Origin: Escherichia phage 215Ecol030PP | Length of the DNA stretch: 64,000 nucleotides | Direction: 5' to 3' (one strand) | Sequence record: PP328843.1 | Part shown: positions 2,126 to 8,674 of the stretch, piece by piece | Position numbering within the stretch: the first letter of the stretch is position 1 | How the letters are laid out: each line of letters begins with the position of its first letter | Made by a program: the position numbers and the translations under genes | Notes under the pieces: model-generated | Seen by the model: the letters and a program-made list of their open reading frames with translations, nothing else | Databases searched by the model: none | What the model was told of the DNA's origin: nothing

Positions 2126-2656
<531 letters not shown>

Positions 2657-3112
2657 TTAAAAGAGGTTGTTCATTATTCGGTAAAGTGAAGGACCCATCA
2701 CATATTGCCACTGAGTACGAGGAATAAGAGCAAAAGCGTCCATCTCTGGAATCATAACGCCATCTTTATTTTCAAAATAAGACTCGCAATGGCAATTTCT
2801 AAACATCTCATGCTCTACTGGAATCGTATAATAAAATAACTGTAAGTCTTTATTACTAGAATATTTAAATACACCTAGGTCTTCTAGAAGGTCTGGATTA
2901 TAATCGATAAAACCAGTCTCTTCTGAGCATTCTCTTTTTGCAGCTTCCAGTGCATTCAAATCAGAACTTTCTACACGGCCCTTTGGAATATCCCAGCGAT
3001 GTGCCATCATTCCAGGCTTACGAGAACCAGTAACCCGACCCATAAATAAATCTTTATCTTCTGTCATAAAGATAATACCAGCTGATAGTGTTTTCATTTT
3101 AATTTCCTGCAT
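2657..3112 (-). CDS. nudE: Nudix hydrolase (T4 e.1/NudE-like)
   Basis: Nudix box ...RECSEETGF...; position immediately upstream of e as in T4. Confidence 0.85.
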   Translation of the reverse strand: MQEIKMKTLSAGIIFMTEDKDLFMGRVTGSRKPGMMAHRWDIPKGRVESSDLNALEAAKRECSEETGFIDYNPDLLEDLGVFKYSSNKDLQLFYYTIPVEHEMFRNCHCESYFENKDGVMIPEMDAFALIPRTQWQYVMGPSLYRIMNNLF

Positions 3113-3582
3113 TCAGTGATAAAGTTATTTAAATTTTGAGTATATTTCTTTTCATCAAAAATCTTTTGTTGTCTGCGTAAACGCCATGGCATTTCAATGA
3201 ACATACGCCATATTCCTGATAATACTGCTGCTGTAAAAATATTAACAAGTATAGTTAAAAGAACCCAATCTCCTATTCTGTCCATTGGATTTTTTATAAA
3301 AAAGTAAAATACGAACGATGATATAGGAAGACTAATGATATACCACAGAAGAACCTTCTTATCTGTGAACCAATCAGCATTCGTTAACTTAGCGCGACCG
3401 TTTTGAATACATACGAACTTATCATCTGTTACAGTAAATGGCTTAACTGGTTGATATCCCATTCTAAACTCCCTAATCAACAAATTTTTCATATCTTCGG
3501 AACAGCCAGTCCAGTCAACTCTATCAACTGAAATGCCATCATCCCCATCATCTAAATCATACCAGCGAGTTTTTAAAATCAT
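3094..3582 (-). CDS. small membrane protein, paralog family member 1 (162 aa)
   Basis: hydrophobic segments; C-terminal NNFITECRKLK motif shared with neighbours. Confidence 0.55.
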   Translation of the reverse strand: MILKTRWYDLDDGDDGISVDRVDWTGCSEDMKNLLIREFRMGYQPVKPFTVTDDKFVCIQNGRAKLTNADWFTDKKVLLWYIISLPISSFVFYFFIKNPMDRIGDWVLLTILVNIFTAAVLSGIWRMFIEMPWRLRRQQKIFDEKKYTQNLNNFITECRKLK

Positions 3583-3941
3583 CTGATTTTCCTACAATCA
3601 CTCACAAACTCTTTCATTGATTCATTTTCAATATAAGACATATAGCTATTATATTCTTTTAATTGTATTTTGTAATCCTTTTTTCTTTGCCAATTTATTT
3701 TAAAATTATCATAATGAAAATATAGTATAGTGCCAAAGAATGAAAATAATGAAATTGCTATAGTAAAACGAAGTTCACTCCAAACCTCTGTTATAATTGC
3801 TGAACCATCGATGTTTAAAATAAAACAGTCAATCATTAATCCAATAAGACTACCCGCAAGAGCTGCAAATACTGACACGGCAAGAATTAACAGTGCCTCA
3901 AGAAACGAATATTTGACTTTATTTAGTTTTGGCTTTTGCAT
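3579..3941 (-). CDS. small membrane protein, paralog family member 2 (120 aa, 2 predicted TM)
   Basis: ORF track; TM stretches; C-terminal EFVSDCRKIR. Confidence 0.55.
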   Translation of the reverse strand: MQKPKLNKVKYSFLEALLILAVSVFAALAGSLIGLMIDCFILNIDGSAIITEVWSELRFTIAISLFSFFGTILYFHYDNFKINWQRKKDYKIQLKEYNSYMSYIENESMKEFVSDCRKIR

Positions 3942-4315
3942 CGTGATTCCTTAACAAATTTCATAATTTCATTAAATTCATACTCAGCAAGTTTAAGCTG
4001 GTGTTCCTTTTTAATCTTTTTACACTGAGCTTTCCAATCACGTACGCGTTTACGATAATGCCTTCCTTGATACCAGTATCCTACCCAATTTACGGGTACT
4101 AATAAAAGTGGAACTATTAATGGAAGAATTAGCATTAACACAAGTATTTCGCCAGAATCAATATCAGTCATAACATCTAAAACACCTCCAATAATCAATA
4201 GAATTACAAATGATATGAGTATAACAGGACCTATTAACACATCAGTAGAAATTATCTGACGCTTTGGTTCATACTTCACAGGTTTACTTGGAAGGTATAG
4301 TGATGGTTTTGACAT
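3923..4315 (-). CDS. small membrane protein, paralog family member 3 (start moved to MSKPS with SD TAAGGAA)
   Basis: ORF track 3923..4336; TM stretches; C-terminal KFVKESRCK. Confidence 0.5.
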   Translation of the reverse strand: MSKPSLYLPSKPVKYEPKRQIISTDVLIGPVILISFVILLIIGGVLDVMTDIDSGEILVLMLILPLIVPLLLVPVNWVGYWYQGRHYRKRVRDWKAQCKKIKKEHQLKLAEYEFNEIMKFVKESRCKSQN

Positions 4316-4898
4316 ATTCTCTACATTCCTTAACAAATTTTTCTAGTAATAAATCACTTTCAAAATTAGGATTTTCCACTAATTTATCAAAAAGATCATC
4401 AACAATATTCAAGATATTTCTTTTACTAAGAATACGTTTATTTTCATGCTTCGTTTCAGAATCAACTATAAGAGTAAAGAAATATTTCTTGCCCTGAAAT
4501 TTTACAGTAGTATCAATATAAAATAAATTTGACTTTTGTAAATTACGTTTAAACCATGCGTCACTTAAACTATAAACACCGAGATAATCAAAATCGTCGT
4601 TTAAATAACAAACCGTCCATTCAGGAGAAATGAAATCAGTAAATTCAACATCAAAATCACACGTCAATGAATGAATTGATTCAATACTGTTAATAAGTAT
4701 TCCAGGACGTATTAAAGACTTTTTACCTCTGGAAAATCTTCCAGAAAGACTTTCATCAGTTTCATATGAAGACCCCCAATAGTAATTACGTCCTTCTGCC
4801 ATGCGTTTAAGAGCATTTAGTAATTGGTCTGGAACATCAACCTGTCTTTGGAACTCTTCAAACATTGAATTGAAATCACTTTGCATTTTCATTTTCAT
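4284..4898 (-). CDS. hypothetical soluble protein (204 aa), shares C-terminal KFVKECRE motif
   Basis: ORF track. Confidence 0.5.
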   Translation of the reverse strand: MKMKMQSDFNSMFEEFQRQVDVPDQLLNALKRMAEGRNYYWGSSYETDESLSGRFSRGKKSLIRPGILINSIESIHSLTCDFDVEFTDFISPEWTVCYLNDDFDYLGVYSLSDAWFKRNLQKSNLFYIDTTVKFQGKKYFFTLIVDSETKHENKRILSKRNILNIVDDLFDKLVENPNFESDLLLEKFVKECREYVKTITIPSK

Positions 4899-4939
4899 TC
4901 CTATTTACTCCAAGTATAAGGGGCCGAAGCCCCTTATCA

Positions 4940-5533
4940 TTATTTCAGAGAATTAATGTATTCCTGAACATCGGCAGAGGTAGTTTCAACCCCAGAAATA
5001 TTACCGTTAAAGGTTTCAACTCGAGCAAGGGTATCTTCAATATCAACCTTAGTCAGCGCTGCAATTTCAACTACATCATCAGCAGTACTAATTCCAAGGG
5101 CATTCGCTGCACGAGTTTCACGGATATATTCCAATTTAACTGCAAGTTCTTGGCGAGCATCATCTAACTCAACTACTTTCTTAGCGATTTCAATTCGCAT
5201 TTCAGCATAACCATCAGCTTTAGTAGTCAACTGCTCAGCTGTTCGACGATATAGTAAACCGAGTTTAGCATGCATTGTTACATCTTGACCTTCGGAAAGA
5301 AGCTTGCGAATTTCACGCTCTTTTGATTCAGCCTGTTTATTCTTTTCAACGATAAGTTCACGAATACGCTTTTCTTCATTAATAGATTTAACGGAAGCAG
5401 TTTTTAGATCTTTAATTTTATCAAGTAGTTTTGCTGCCGCAGCAGTATACTGTTCTTCAACAGATAGATTTTTAGCCATAGCAGAACCAAGTTTAGTGCG
5501 AATAAACTCAACAATTTTCTTCAGTGTGTTCAT
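4940..5533 (-). CDS. coiled-coil protein (197 aa), weak PspA/IM30-like character
   Basis: heptad-rich K/E/L/A composition; SD AAGGAAA upstream. Confidence 0.5.
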
Positions 5534-5578
5534 AGTATTTCCTTAGGTTAATTAAGGGTTTTATAATCCATGGGAGTA

Positions 5579-5755
5579 TTATACTCCGGATAGTTTGTAA
5601 ACTATTTCAACATCGCCTTTTGCTGCTTTATAACCTTCAGCCCAAGATACAACCGAGTTTTTATCCGAAGATTCAAATTCTGGCATTGGGCTTTCGCCAA
5701 TGTTCACGCAGTATGTTTCTTCATTTTCGTCGAACCAAATAATTAAAGTAGTCAT
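5579..5755 (-). CDS. small hypothetical protein (~58 aa, below ORF-track cutoff)
   Basis: SD GGAGAAATAAATG then open frame MTTLIIWFDENEET... Confidence 0.35.
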   Translation of the reverse strand: MTTLIIWFDENEETYCVNIGESPMPEFESSDKNSVVSWAEGYKAAKGDVEIVYKLSGV

Positions 5756-6294: not shown

Positions 6295-6322
6295 CAAAAA
6301 GCCCCAACCTTTTGGTCGGGGC
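6295..6322 (-). terminator. intrinsic terminator (GCCCC-stem hairpin plus U-run on minus strand) after gene 6331-6804
   Basis: hairpin GCCCCAACC...GGTCGGGGC followed by T5 on minus strand. Confidence 0.55.
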
Positions 6323-6330
6323 TAAGAATG

Positions 6331-6804
6331 TTATTTGATTTGTTTAGCAGACCAAATGCGGTCTTTAATAATTTTTTGGATGTCTTCAACATACTCAAGA
6401 GAGTGAACATGTGGATTATCTTTGAAACTATAAGCACGGGCTAACTTTTGGCCTTCGGTTTTGATTACTAAAAGCTCTTTAAGGATAGCTTCATATTTGG
6501 AGATAATTCCTTTAACAATATTTTTCTCTTGTGTGACTTTAGGATCTGCTTTAGGAGCAGGTTTACCTGAAGCCTTTGCAAAAGCAGCTCCAGTAGCAAC
6601 TAAACTTTTCCAAGCCATACTAACTGCATTCCCTGTAAATCCTTCGGCTTTCATATCACGAGCAAATTGGAATCGTGATTCATCGGAAGCATCTTTATAG
6701 GAATATTTACCCGCGGCAATGGCAGCTTTTGCAACAGCTTGAATTTCAGTGCTAGATGCTTCATTTAACACCGCTTCATTTAAAAATTGAGTATATGATT
6801 TCAT
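6331..6804 (-). CDS. internal-protein-like protein with capsid-targeting-sequence-like N-terminus MKSYTQFLNE (157 aa)
   Basis: ORF track 6331..6981 begins with TTG inside upstream tRNA-like element; ATG at 6804 has SD AGGAAA; late promoter TATAAATA upstream. Confidence 0.6.
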   Translation of the reverse strand: MKSYTQFLNEAVLNEASSTEIQAVAKAAIAAGKYSYKDASDESRFQFARDMKAEGFTGNAVSMAWKSLVATGAAFAKASGKPAPKADPKVTQEKNIVKGIISKYEAILKELLVIKTEGQKLARAYSFKDNPHVHSLEYVEDIQKIIKDRIWSAKQIK

Positions 6805-6842
6805 CTTATTTCCTGTTTTAATTCGGGGTTTTAATATACTAA

Positions 6843-6850
6843 TATTTATA
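6843..6850 (-). promoter_or_regulatory. late promoter TATAAATA upstream of IP-like gene 6331-6804
   Basis: exact motif on minus strand between terminator hairpin and SD. Confidence 0.5.
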
Positions 6851-6852
6851 CT

Positions 6853-6879
6853 AAAAAGCCCCAACCTTTCGGTCGGGGC
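6853..6879 (-). terminator. intrinsic terminator at 3' end of the tRNA/small-RNA transcription unit
   Basis: near-duplicate of the 6295-6322 hairpin, T-run on minus strand. Confidence 0.55.
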
Positions 6880-7196
6880 TAAGCCTTGCGGCAACCTTGT
6901 CGGGGTTCCACCTGCTAAGGCAAGTGTTTGTACGAAACGCCGGGATTCGAACCCGGTTATTAAGCAGTTGACGCTACTCAATATTTTTAAAAGGCCATAT
7001 CTCGACCATATCCGAACGTTCCGTCAAAAACGCTACTCGGCTTATGGCAAAGATATTTCCTCGAATCGATAATTCGGTGCGCCGTTTCTGCTGTGATATA
7101 AGGGGGCATTAACAAAACATAAAGATTTATTAATGCCAGTCCTTAAACAGGGAACATCAGTCCGACGACTTGCCGGTAGCGACCCGGCTTCTTGTC

Positions 7197-7272
7197 TGGT
7201 CGAGGCAGTAGGGATCGAACCTACGACCCAGGACTTAGAAGGTCCTTGCTCTTCCTTCTGAGCTATGCCCCG
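7197..7272 (-). tRNA. tRNA-Arg (anticodon TCT), CCA encoded
   Basis: hand-folded cloverleaf: 7-bp acceptor, D stem GCTC/GAGC, anticodon loop CTTCTAA, T-loop TTCGATC. Confidence 0.8.
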
Positions 7273-7276
7273 TAAT

Positions 7277-7352
7277 TGGGGTGACCGATGGGAGTCGAAC
7301 CCATGACTACGAGAATCACAATCTCGAGTTCTACCAACTGAACTACGGCCAC
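7277..7352 (-). tRNA. tRNA-His (anticodon GTG), CCA encoded
   Basis: hand-folded cloverleaf; anticodon loop TTGTGAT; T-arm ATGGG/CCCAT. Confidence 0.75.
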
Positions 7353-7443
7353 ATTAATACCTACTCCAACAATCAAGATGTCTTCACACGAAATTAAGAG
7401 AAGAGTGATCAGTTCAACCCCTATAATCGCGTCAAGTAGATAT

Positions 7444-7465
7444 TAATGTGACAGTTGTCACAAAT
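7444..7465. promoter_or_regulatory. perfect CRP-consensus-like palindrome TGTGA-N6-TCACA (TAATGTGACAGTTGTCACAAAT)
   Basis: both CRP half-sites and 6-bp spacing exact, A/T flanks; lies 3' of tRNA-Asn. Confidence 0.4.
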
Positions 7466-7466
7466 T

Positions 7467-7541
7467 TGGCGGACGTGATAGGATTCGAACCTATAACCAA
7501 TCGCTTAACAGGCGATCGCTCTGCCATTGAGCTACACATCC
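7467..7541 (-). tRNA. tRNA-Asn (anticodon GTT), CCA encoded
   Basis: hand-folded cloverleaf; anticodon stem ATCGC/GCGAT, loop CTGTTAA. Confidence 0.75.
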
Positions 7542-7545
7542 AAAT

Positions 7546-7632
7546 TGGTGGGGAGTGATGGAGTCGAACCACCCGAGTCGCAATGACAATGGATTTACAG
7601 TCCACACCGCTACCTCTACGGGATAACTCCCC
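7546..7632 (-). tRNA. tRNA-Tyr (anticodon GTA), type II with long variable arm, CCA encoded
   Basis: perfect 7-bp acceptor GGGGAGT/ACTCCCC; anticodon loop CTGTAAA. Confidence 0.75.
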
Positions 7633-7645
7633 TTAATTCTTAATT

Positions 7646-7720
7646 TGGTGGCCCTGGGTGGAATTGAACCACCATCTGGCGATTATGAGTCGCTTGCTTG
7701 AACCTTCCAGCTACAGGGCC
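7646..7720 (-). tRNA. tRNA with anticodon CAT (Met or lysidine-modified Ile, as T4 tRNA-Ile)
   Basis: perfect acceptor GGCCCTG/CAGGGCC, T-arm GGTGG/CCACC, anticodon loop CTCATAA. Confidence 0.75.
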
Positions 7721-7728
7721 AAATTTTC

Positions 7729-8214
7729 TTATTTTATGTAATATTTATTTAAAAACTTTCTAGCTTGAGTATGGCTAACATTTATAGCGTTTGCATAATT
7801 TTTAATAAAACCTCGTTCATCCATATTAAAATTTTCTAATATTTTTAATCGTCTAGTTATCTCATCTTGACTTAAGGTACTTGCATTATTTTTAGAAATT
7901 TTTTCTAAGGACTGTGCCGAGTGTTTTCGACCATTAAAATTAAAATTTTTAGATTTTGGAGGAAATCTAGCATTTAATCTCGCATCTTTTGTATTTTGAT
8001 TATTAGTTGCGCAATATATGTTATTTAATGAATATGGTCCTTTATCGCCGAAACGGCACATGCAGTATTCATGACCCTTTCTTCCACGCTTATCATAATT
8101 TCCCGTTGATTTCCACCAATGCAGCCATTCATCAAAAGTTAAATTCCATTCAATGTTTCTACGTATAGCAGAATTCCGCTGAGAAATATATTTTGCATAA
8201 TCTTCTTTCATCAC
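7729..8214 (-). CDS. putative HNH-family homing endonuclease embedded in the tRNA cluster (161 aa, GTG start)
   Basis: motif GHEYCMCRFGDKGPYSLNNIYCATNNQN resembles HNH core; basic C-terminal DNA-binding-like tail. Confidence 0.5.
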   Translation of the reverse strand: MMKEDYAKYISQRNSAIRRNIEWNLTFDEWLHWWKSTGNYDKRGRKGHEYCMCRFGDKGPYSLNNIYCATNNQNTKDARLNARFPPKSKNFNFNGRKHSAQSLEKISKNNASTLSQDEITRRLKILENFNMDERGFIKNYANAINVSHTQARKFLNKYYIK

Positions 8215-8258
8215 AAATTTCTCTACTTATTCAATACACTGAGCTAAATCAGCAAAAC

Positions 8259-8348
8259 TGGCGGAGGCGATAGGATTTGAACCTATGAGTCGCCGGAGCG
8301 ACTGCCGGTTTTCAAGACCGGTGCATTAAACCACTCTGCCACGCCTCC
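8259..8348 (-). tRNA. tRNA-Ser (anticodon TGA), type II, CCA encoded
   Basis: acceptor GGAGGCG/CGCCTCC; anticodon stem CCGGT/ACCGG, loop CTTGAAA; long variable arm. Confidence 0.8.
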
Positions 8349-8350
8349 AG

Positions 8351-8424
8351 TCTCCGCGGCAGGATTTGAACCTACGACATTCTGCTCCCAAAGCAGACGC
8401 TCTACCAAACTGAGCTACACGGAG
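8351..8424 (-). tRNA. tRNA-Pro (anticodon TGG), CCA not encoded; 2 nt from tRNA-Ser (dimeric precursor geometry)
   Basis: D stem GCTC/GAGC; anticodon stem TCTGC/GCAGA, loop TTTGGGA. Confidence 0.8.
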
Positions 8425-8434
8425 TAAATTAAAT

Positions 8435-8508
<74 letters not shown>

Positions 8509-8513
8509 AAATT

Positions 8514-8600
8514 TGGTGCGAGAAGTGGGACTCGAACCCACAAGGAAATCATTCCGCAGCATTTTAAGTGCTGTGCCTTTACCAATTTGGCCATTCTCGC
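8514..8600 (-). tRNA. tRNA-Leu (anticodon TAA), type II, CCA encoded
   Basis: acceptor GCGAGAA/TTCTCGC; anticodon stem CAGCA/TGCTG, loop CTTAAAA. Confidence 0.8.
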
Positions 8601-8601
8601 G

Positions 8602-8674
8602 CTGGGAATAAAGGACTCGAACCTTTGCATCCTGGAATCAAAATCCAGTGCCTTACCAACTTGGCTAATTCCCA
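8602..8674 (-). tRNA. tRNA-Gln (anticodon TTG), CCA not encoded; 1 nt from tRNA-Leu (dimeric precursor geometry)
   Basis: acceptor TGGGAAT/ATTCCCA; anticodon stem CTGGA/TCCAG, loop TTTTGAT. Confidence 0.8.

Follow-up and report, generated by a model that had tools for sequence, protein, structure and literature searches.

This study concerns genes e.2 to e.5, and a short peptide shared by the C-termini of their products, in a 64,000-nucleotide stretch of Escherichia phage 215Ecol030PP (record PP328843.1), hereafter the window. The internal proteins IPI, IPII and IPIII of T-even phages carry an N-terminal capsid targeting sequence (CTS), MKTYQEFIAE, and the prohead protease gp21 cuts after I/L-x-E. 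Imm, Sp, RI and holin T are small early membrane proteins encoded in T-even accessory regions and dispensable on laboratory hosts, and each acts as a single gene, uncoupled to a conserved soluble partner. Promoter-early stem-loops (PeSLs) are mobile regulatory cassettes through which genes are shuffled as modules in T4-type phages (PMC2839356, PMC4122927). Genes e.2 to e.6 themselves are among the many T4 genes of no known function, though T4 is the best-studied large lytic phage. In the T4 tables of the CRISPRi-ART study (PMC11879866, 2025), they are listed as of unknown function and their knock-down had no fitness effect on the laboratory host; the main text of the HIDEN-SEQ preprint does not mention them. 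The first-pass annotation of the window, which called the array uncharacterised, was correct in this respect. No description of a cluster-wide C-terminal signature or of a linkage to e.6 was found in the literature, in which gene names such as "e.3" are poorly searchable.

As judged from their sequences, e.2 to e.5 are known T4-type early accessory genes, linked by a C-terminal peptide of about ten residues rather than by detectable whole-gene duplication. The window is that of a Tequatrovirus, and its positions 2600-5600 are 97% identical to many T4-like coliphages. The four proteins are orthologues of T4 e.2 to e.5 with the same order, overlaps and neighbours, and their full-length tblastn identities to T4 are 80% (e.2), 82% (e.3), 92% (e.4) and 97% (e.5); they differ in that e.2 is intact here and broken in T4. 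The genes and motif copies are listed below, followed by the flanking features.

4284 to 4898, minus strand: e.5 orthologue, a soluble protein of 204 amino acids (aa); PHROG 2607 (3e-109), precomputed Pfam PF26876
4320 to 4337, minus strand: e.5 motif F188-V-K-E-C-R193, in the last predicted helix (179-198), with the e.4 ATG 4 nt 3'
3923 to 4315, minus strand: e.4 orthologue, 130 aa; PHROG 2604 (3e-70)
4016 to 4036, minus strand: internal motif-like copy of e.4, W-K-A-Q-C-K-K (aa 94-100)
3941 to 3958, minus strand: terminal motif of e.4, F-V-K-E-S-R, with the Cys shifted to +2
3579 to 3941, minus strand: e.3 orthologue, 120 aa; PHROG 2330 (5e-56)
3591 to 3608, minus strand: e.3 motif F-V-S-D-C-R; the next AGG AAA doubles as the Shine-Dalgarno (SD) sequence of e.2
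3094 to 3582, minus strand: e.2 orthologue, 162 aa; PHROG 2203 "membrane protein" (2e-78), precomputed Pfam PF26896
3106 to 3123, minus strand: e.2 motif F-I-T-E-C-R; the next AGG AAA is the SD of nudE
4940 to 5533, minus strand: e.6, 197 aa, no hydrophobic segment; context of the motif cluster
4916 to 4937, unstranded: G+C-rich hairpin between e.6 and e.5
2657 to 3097, minus strand: nudE, a Nudix hydrolase (Pfam NUDIX, 3.7e-13) and the last gene of the coupled chain

The pattern F[IV]x[ED]CR has exactly three matches in the six-frame translation of the window, against 0.13 in shuffled windows, and these are the C-termini of e.2 (FITECR), e.3 (FVSDCR) and e.5 (FVKECR). Relaxing the position of the Cys adds e.4 only (FVKESRC). 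A scan of nearly all of a T4-type genome, made up of T4 1-75 kb and 125-169 kb together with the window, found F[IV]xxC[RK] in the e.2 to e.5 genes only. The first-pass annotation had described a C-terminal motif common to the array and to the 204-aa protein; the motif is indeed present in e.5, although it lies 11 residues before the stop and not at the very end. BLASTP aligns the internal WKAQCKK of e.4 with the terminal motifs of e.3 and e.2, and W-K-x-Q-C is kept in Mosigvirus (WKVQC) and in an e.4-like protein of a Klebsiella phage (WKEQC).

In every sampled T4-like lineage, the motif peptide is confined to proteins encoded 3' of e.6. The e.6 protein is 51-100% identical across 1106 phage records, down to Aeromonas phages and RB43, and it is 88% identical between Tequatrovirus and Mosigvirus, while the e.2 to e.5 orthologues of these genera are 37-52% identical (e.3 37%). 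The Mosigvirus orthologues keep the motif (QFIMECRE in e.5, EFVKEIRC in e.4, and NFIKECRK and RFITECRNLR directly before the stop in e.3 and e.2), although other genes sit 3' of e.3 and e.2. A fifth two-segment membrane protein of Mosigvirus, termed mX here, ends in NFIKECRGK. Further lineages were reached via e.6, namely Dhakavirus, Kanagawavirus, a Klebsiella phage, Karamvirus, two Aeromonas-phage lineages and RB43. In these, the first protein 3' of e.6 is soluble and has F[IV]xxC[RK] near its end, with further carriers behind it; the Klebsiella phage has several membrane carriers, and small soluble carriers were also found. Karamvirus PG7 is the exception, having two motif-less ORFs (open reading frames) of 79 and 95 aa after e.6 (locus L019, 4656-5179), possibly a split or degraded e.5-like gene, and three consecutive two-segment membrane carriers 2.6 kb further 3'. 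Some annotation pipelines label e.6 "host specificity protein", for which no basis is visible in those records.

The motif thus occurs on clearly different proteins in at least nine Straboviridae lineages, and the carriers include both large (154-290 aa) and small (80-102 aa) soluble proteins as well as two-segment membrane proteins. Nine loci, one for each of nine lineages, gave 21 matches where 0.3 are expected from shuffles; every one is on the coding strand, 1-25 residues from the C-terminus. The e.6 profile was also used to fetch 40 loci from IMG/VR, covering 630 kb with 8 kb on each side. These loci contain 118 matches to F[IV]xxC[RK], of which 114 are on the e.6 strand, 3' of e.6 and 0-24 residues from a protein end; there are none upstream of e.6 on its strand within 8 kb. 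The other four, which look like chance matches, fall on the opposite strand within ORFs of 58-89 aa and lie 46-54 residues short of their ends. Twenty shuffled loci gave a single match. At least one carrier is present in 39 of the 40 loci, the remaining one being truncated inside e.6. Likewise in 39 of the 40, the first gene 3' of e.6 encodes a motif-bearing e.5-like protein; e.5 is the founding member of this family, which sits immediately behind e.6 in T4-like phages.

The consensus is Φ(-3)-E(-2)-x-F-[IV]-x-x-C-R-[KRG]. Among 27 carriers, position -3 is aliphatic in 19, position 0 is F in 26, position +1 is I or V in all 27, position +4 is C in 23 and position +5 is R in 25, and the residues that follow the motif at the extreme C-termini are basic. 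In an alignment of e.5-like proteins from eight lineages, F188 and C192 are the sole invariant columns, and R193 is invariant too once aligned with the Aeromonas-phage relatives; the distant e.5-like proteins all end with LF[IV][DE]YCRR. Within e.5-like proteins, the motif is part of a predicted helix and is followed by 5-25 further residues.

Relatives of e.5 are hard to detect by sequence. An exhaustive HMMER search found 11 proteins, a word-indexed search with a multi-genus e.5 alignment returned only Tequatrovirus, Mosigvirus and Aeromonas-phage relatives, and a local e.5 profile barely detects the positional equivalents in other genera. Given this weak detection, the homology implied by "e.5-like" rests on position, pattern, Foldseek matches to predicted viral structures and the motif. 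An AlphaFold2 model of e.5 has a pLDDT of 60.5 and a pTM of 0.62 (the e.5 models are of low confidence, with pLDDT 57-60). Against BFVD, Foldseek matched the e.5 model to uncharacterised proteins of other T4-like genera with E-values from 4e-17 to 7e-4, and no solved structure was matched by the e.5 models. A profile search of e.5 and e.6 against the sequences of the PDB also found nothing. Two candidate identities were rejected. A RelA/SpoT-type small alarmone synthetase or nucleotidyltransferase fold for e.5 found no significant fold match with catalytic motifs. For e.6, a PspA/IM30-like identity found no Pfam PspA_IM30 match and no PspA/Vipp1 chain in the PDB profile search; hhalign gave a probability of 0.2% against a manually entered E. 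coli PspA sequence.

Compared with the systems introduced above, the CTS is similar in being a short conserved terminal peptide on otherwise unrelated, polymorphic accessory proteins from the same hyperplastic part of T-even genomes. There is also a local F-I-x-E likeness, FIAE in the CTS against FIAECR in the e.5-like protein of Dhakavirus. The motif described here differs in being C-terminal, in its invariant F, I/V, C and R, and in having membrane proteins among its carriers. The motif was rejected as a CTS or gp21 site, given that all 135 coding-strand occurrences are C-terminal (0-25 residues) and that the Glu required at P1 is found in just 13 of 27 carriers. As with PeSLs, these are short repeats at gene boundaries in hyperplastic regions where genes are gained, lost and swapped. 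However, PeSLs are intergenic and conserved as DNA, whereas the motif repeat is coding, in frame and conserved as protein, with neither promoter nor stem-loop. An identity as a PeSL cassette was likewise rejected, since the junctions are coding overlaps that show no promoter/terminator pattern, and codons vary while amino acids stay. Imm, Sp, RI and holin T resemble the array proteins in size, location, early expression and dispensability, but they have no sequence or profile similarity to them, and their genes lack the motif.

The four ORFs were confirmed on the minus strand at the coordinates first proposed for them. The gene order is collinear with T4 denV-e-nudE-e.2-e.3-e.4-e.5-e.6, and the order from e.6 to nudE/e is the same in T4, T6 and 497 other phage records (region coverage of at least 80%). 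In GenBank record L13089, which names the gene set msp4-msp8, T4 e.2 to e.5 are msp7 to msp4. The hairpin at 4916-4937 is an annotated stem-loop in the same T4 record and a terminator in Mosigvirus WFbE185. Translational coupling, proposed in the first pass, is borne out by overlapping stop and start codons at every junction: e.5 and e.4 overlap by 32 nt (e.4 ATG at 4315), e.4 and e.3 by 19 nt, and the e.3/e.2 and e.2/nudE junctions are ATGA overlaps, the ATG at 3097 being the nudE start with an SD. No promoter-like site was found between the hairpin at 4916-4937 and the late promoters of gene e, whose motifs (TATAAATA, at 2654 and 2641) lie 3' of the array, just before that gene. Given the overlaps and the lack of an internal promoter-like site, e.5-e.4-e.3-e.2-nudE form one translationally coupled unit served by upstream promoters. 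Rfam returned nothing in the array, and only tRNAs at 7200-8674 in the window.

Topology was judged from hydropathy, using Kyte-Doolittle windows of 19 residues and counts of Lys plus Arg. The proteins of the array had been described as having one or two hydrophobic segments; their membrane character stands for e.2 to e.4, but each has two such segments (e.2 78-96 and 106-129; e.3 14-37 and 57-76; e.4 27-49 and 56-78), and e.5 has none. The short loops contain no K or R in e.3 and e.4 and two in e.2, while the C-terminal tails contain 9-15. By the positive-inside rule, these basic tails and K/R-poor loops place both termini in the cytoplasm. Hence, e.2, e.3 and e.4 are predicted to be inner-membrane hairpins, N-in/C-in, with basic and probably helical cytoplasmic tails of 33, 44 and 52 residues, respectively. 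The three proteins also share a stretch with W and basic residues next to the membrane, between the second hydrophobic segment and the tail, and in e.2 the hydrophobic segments are preceded by an acidic N-terminal domain of 77 residues.

Selection differs along these proteins. The ratio of nonsynonymous to synonymous polymorphism (pN/pS) within Tequatrovirus is 0.10 for e.5, which indicates strong purifying selection. For e.2 to e.4 it is 0.6-1.2 in the hydrophobic segments and loops and 0-0.36 in the cytoplasmic tails; for e.4 alone, the tail has 0.04-0.36 against 0.6-1.2 in its hydrophobic segments and loop.

From the conserved peptide and the variable proteins that carry it, we infer a docking function, a partner and a biological role. 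Our preferred reading, held tentatively, is that the motif is an amphipathic docking or recognition helix exposed in the cytoplasm, by which its carriers bind a common partner or each other. F, the invariant Cys and the aliphatic residue would all line one side of the helix. Its carriers would form a changing set of clients, comprising one soluble e.5-like protein, between one and four rapidly evolving membrane hairpins, and small soluble proteins. On the cytoplasmic side of the membrane they would bind a single conserved partner or one another, and the variable membrane-embedded and loop parts would give each client its specificity. The prime candidate for the partner is e.6, because it is always adjacent to the motif genes, a conserved host protein being the alternative. 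A plausible role for the ensemble is membrane-level competition with other phages or with host defences.

Several points weigh against this docking interpretation. No interaction was observed or predicted, the structural models being of single chains and that of e.5 of low confidence. The invariant Cys beside an invariant Arg points equally to thiol chemistry (metal, redox or covalent modification). Moreover, e.6 has no conserved Cys and is tied to the motif by adjacency alone. Members are lost at no known cost, as with e.2 in T4 and T2 and with the apparently split e.5-like gene in PG7, and the CRISPRi-ART knock-downs cited above found no fitness effect on the laboratory host. Lastly, the motif codons often serve the protein and the ribosome-binding site alike (16 of 27 carriers have a start codon no more than 10 nt from the motif), and some contribution from translational coupling remains.

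A bolder form of the docking interpretation, which we consider doubtful, is that of a hub system. The peptide would be a dedicated recognition signal by which a constant hub, either e.6 or a single conserved host protein, recruits exchangeable, rapidly evolving tagged clients (the e.5-like protein and the hairpins) to the inner membrane, and the Cys-Arg pair would carry out chemistry such as metal bridging, a redox switch or covalent modification. Such a system would be a C-terminal, membrane-directed counterpart of the N-terminal CTS. If true, it would be a new organising principle for the hyperplastic regions of Straboviridae, and accessory membrane proteins could be found by the motif alone. 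In any case, one short protein-level motif turns several separate orphan families into one testable unit, and the experimental target is small: three residues (F, C and R) in a peptide of ten.

Another possibility, which we regard as unlikely, is that the membrane proteins are independent small effectors, each acting alone in exclusion, lysis timing or the blocking of defences, with the Cys-Arg end as a signal for turnover, modification or sorting. This fits early-type genes that have no late promoter of their own, the pN/pS of 0.6-1.2 in membrane and loop parts, as in an arms race, the basic extreme C-termini, and the dispensability on a laboratory host together with the free loss of single members. 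However, no resemblance of these proteins to a PADLOC family, to Imm or Sp, or to holins or antiholins was detected. The strict co-location with e.6 and the e.5-like protein and the translational coupling suggest joint action, and the position of the e.5-like motif, inside a predicted helix and up to 25 residues from the end, would be unusual for a terminal degron. The exclusion, holin/antiholin and anti-defence roles suggested in the first-pass annotation may still apply, although they found no support in Pfam, PHROGs, NCBIfam or PADLOC. Scans of e.2 to e.6 against Pfam, NCBIfam and PADLOC gave sub-threshold noise driven by hydrophobic segments (DUF4282, Bfi1 immunity, CrgA). No homology of the array proteins to Imm or Sp was found in Pfam, PHROGs or NCBIfam at E-values up to 1, nor any match to a holin or antiholin family in Pfam or PHROGs, and late-promoter motifs occur only 3' of the array.

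The first-pass annotation had explained the array by duplication of paralogous genes. Taken strictly, e.2, e.3, e.4 and the 3' end of e.5 would have arisen by local duplications and diverged in all but the C-terminal residues, and the motif would be their best-preserved relic, with no function of its own. The common architecture of e.2, e.3 and e.4 (two hydrophobic segments, a short K/R-poor loop, the W-plus-basic stretch and a basic tail, as seen by hydropathy) is in line with it, as are the recurring arrays of two to four such proteins in Mosigvirus, Karamvirus and the Klebsiella phage. At the DNA level, an exact 16-mer, AAATTTGTTAAGGAAT, is common to the e.5/e.4 and e.4/e.3 junctions, and none of 500 shuffles reached it. 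A likeness between the e.3/e.2 and e.2/nudE junctions was reached by 2 of 500 shuffles, and comparison across the two junction types is not significant. With hhalign, using alignments of orthologues from 14 Tequatrovirus and Mosigvirus loci with the motif included, probabilities are 56-79% for e.2C/e.3, e.2C/mX, e.3/e.4 and e.3/mX, that of e.3/e.4 being 67% over 37 columns.

When the alignments are cut at the Phe of the motif, however, all significant profile similarity is lost, with hhalign probabilities of at most 4.2% for every pair, within the range of column permutations. The trimmed juxtamembrane match of e.3 and e.4 is marginal, its score of 19.9 being reached by 1 of 40 permutations. 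Pairwise BLASTP gives E-values of 0.01-0.1 in the tails only, a tblastn query with either e.3 or e.4 hits a single site in each genome, and PHROGs assigns the four proteins to four separate families. Additional hints of common descent are confined to e.4 and e.3, which have the 16-mer at their upstream junctions and whose N-termini look alike by eye (MSKPSL...VKY and MQKPKL...VKY, that is, MxKPxL...VKY). The claim of paralogy keeps the common architecture and these e.3/e.4 hints, but not similarity outside the motif. The motif is also found on clearly unrelated soluble proteins as far as Aeromonas phages and RB43, and a passive relic would not remain invariant while orthologues drop to 11-18% identity. 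Its presence on clearly different proteins in so many lineages suggests a shared C-terminal module and not the relic of one local duplication, and plain tandem paralogy appears improbable.

The motif DNA has also served as a point of gene deletion and fusion. In T2 (locus L008, 2501-3300) and in IMG/VR locus L007, e.2 is missing and e.3 is joined directly to nudE. The end of e.3 is a hybrid in both, with the FVSD or FVID codons of e.3 followed by TGC AGG AAA TTA AAA TGA of e.2, and the loss of e.2 is a precise in-frame deletion between two motif copies. In T4, e.2 (L001, 4476-4961) is broken into ORFs of 102, 30 and 36 aa, and other isolates have truncated e.2 of 102 and 122 aa (proteins P0059-P0064), while that of the window phage is intact with 162 aa. 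Being broken in T4 and absent from T2, e.2 is dispensable. Phage UFV11 (L014, 2001-2321; protein P0065) has an in-frame chimera of e.4 residues 1-31 fused to e.2 from its first hydrophobic segment onwards; the remainder of e.4, the whole of e.3 and the e.2 N-terminal domain are gone. The junction of the chimera is a 10-nt microhomology, TCCTGTGACA, in the first hydrophobic segments and not at the motif. Genera vary in how many motif genes they have and in what order, and Mosigvirus has unrelated genes between e.3 and e.2.

Since the motif codons usually overlap the next ribosome-binding site, the repeated DNA doubles as microhomology, and comparison of these loci indicates that cassettes are lost or fused in frame at motif DNA with coupling intact. 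Coding microhomology placed on a ribosome-binding site would allow accessory cassettes to be lost or fused while the expression of the genes behind them is undisturbed. It might then be proposed that the repeat is kept mainly for swapping, gaining and losing cassettes in frame, as a coding counterpart of PeSL cassettes. The exact deletion of e.2 between motif copies in T2 and L007, the variation in gene number and order, the Mosigvirus insertions and published evidence that modules are shuffled at short conserved motifs in these phages (PMC2839356, PMC4122927) speak for this. We nevertheless consider it quite unlikely, given that just 9-16 nt are identical between copies of one genome, that the UFV11 fusion used another microhomology, and that the amino acids, unlike the DNA, are constant from genus to genus, which means that it is not DNA identity that is being conserved.

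The motif could finally reflect signals in the RNA, and the first pass had held it to be partly forced by the SD of the next gene. This is right in so far as AGG AAA (R-K) is the SD of e.2 and nudE, TGY AGG AAA encoding C-R-K. For the e.3 start, the SD lies instead in the K-E codons of e.4 (AAG GAA), and the e.3 ATG lies within the R-C codons of e.4. The SD accounts for at most two of the six motif positions per gene, in agreement with the earlier remark that similarity extends beyond the SD-encoded residues. Nor is the motif forced by it: over 113 distinct motif contexts, Arg is encoded by CGN, which is unlike an SD, in 58 and by AGR in 43, Cys by TGT in 59 and TGC in 54, and Phe by TTT in 75 and TTC in 38. 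Spacing between the motif and the following start codon varies from -1 to 258 nt; five of the 27 carriers lack a start inside 38 nt. In Tequatrovirus, motif windows have a pN of 0 and a pS of 0.10-0.17; the last 12 codons of e.2 have a pS of 0.10 and a pN of 0, and e.3 orthologues show synonymous AGT/AGC and TGT/TGC variants in the motif. The CGN codons, variable spacing and synonymous-only change indicate that the constraint acts on the protein. It is thus very improbable that the motif is simply the (re-)initiation region of the next gene, a U-rich stretch with its AGGAAA or AAGGAA SD, translated in the frame of the gene before it, with the amino-acid pattern as a by-product: the SD overlaps, the close starts in 16 carriers and the pS of 0 in the last codons of e.4 and e.5, which are read in two frames, are in its favour, but codon usage largely refutes it, and the motif is invariably in frame with the upstream protein, is retained where the next start is 38-258 nt away with its own SD, and varies by conservative substitutions (I/V, R/K) alongside variable synonymous sites.

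A second tandem family adjoins the motif genes, consisting of three to five consecutive small soluble proteins of 65-101 aa. It was seen in Mosigvirus WFbE185 (L013, 5356-6150), in Dhakavirus dhabil (L016, 6522-7766), in L017 (5710-6776) and in L019 (5302-5828). Most members end in G-x-W-[VIL]-S-S-S-x-x-C, as in GAWVSSSALC, GGWVSSSSEC and TSWVSSSYEC, and the remaining ones have looser endings that are still Cys-terminal (WYPSSC, WFTSSMSC). This is another common C-terminal Cys motif in the same hyperplastic region.

Elsewhere in the window, denV (1650-2066) is directly followed by gene e (2126-2620), without the internal-protein genes ipII and ipIII that separate the two in T4. Two near-identical terminator-like hairpins of 24 nt occur on the minus strand at 6857-6880 and 6300-6323, 557 nt apart, each consisting of AGCCCCGACC, a GAAA or AAAA loop and GGTTGGGGCT, followed by TTTT. 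They flank most of an ORF at 6331-6981, between e.8 and the tRNA cluster, and are reminiscent of the repeats that bound mobile cassettes in T4-type phages. Within the tRNA cluster, whose tRNAs lie at 7200-7720 and 8262-8674, an ORF of 161 aa with a GTG start lies at 7729-8214; it occupies what we take to be the place of the GIY-YIG endonuclease SegB in T4, and its sequence presumably differs from that of SegB.

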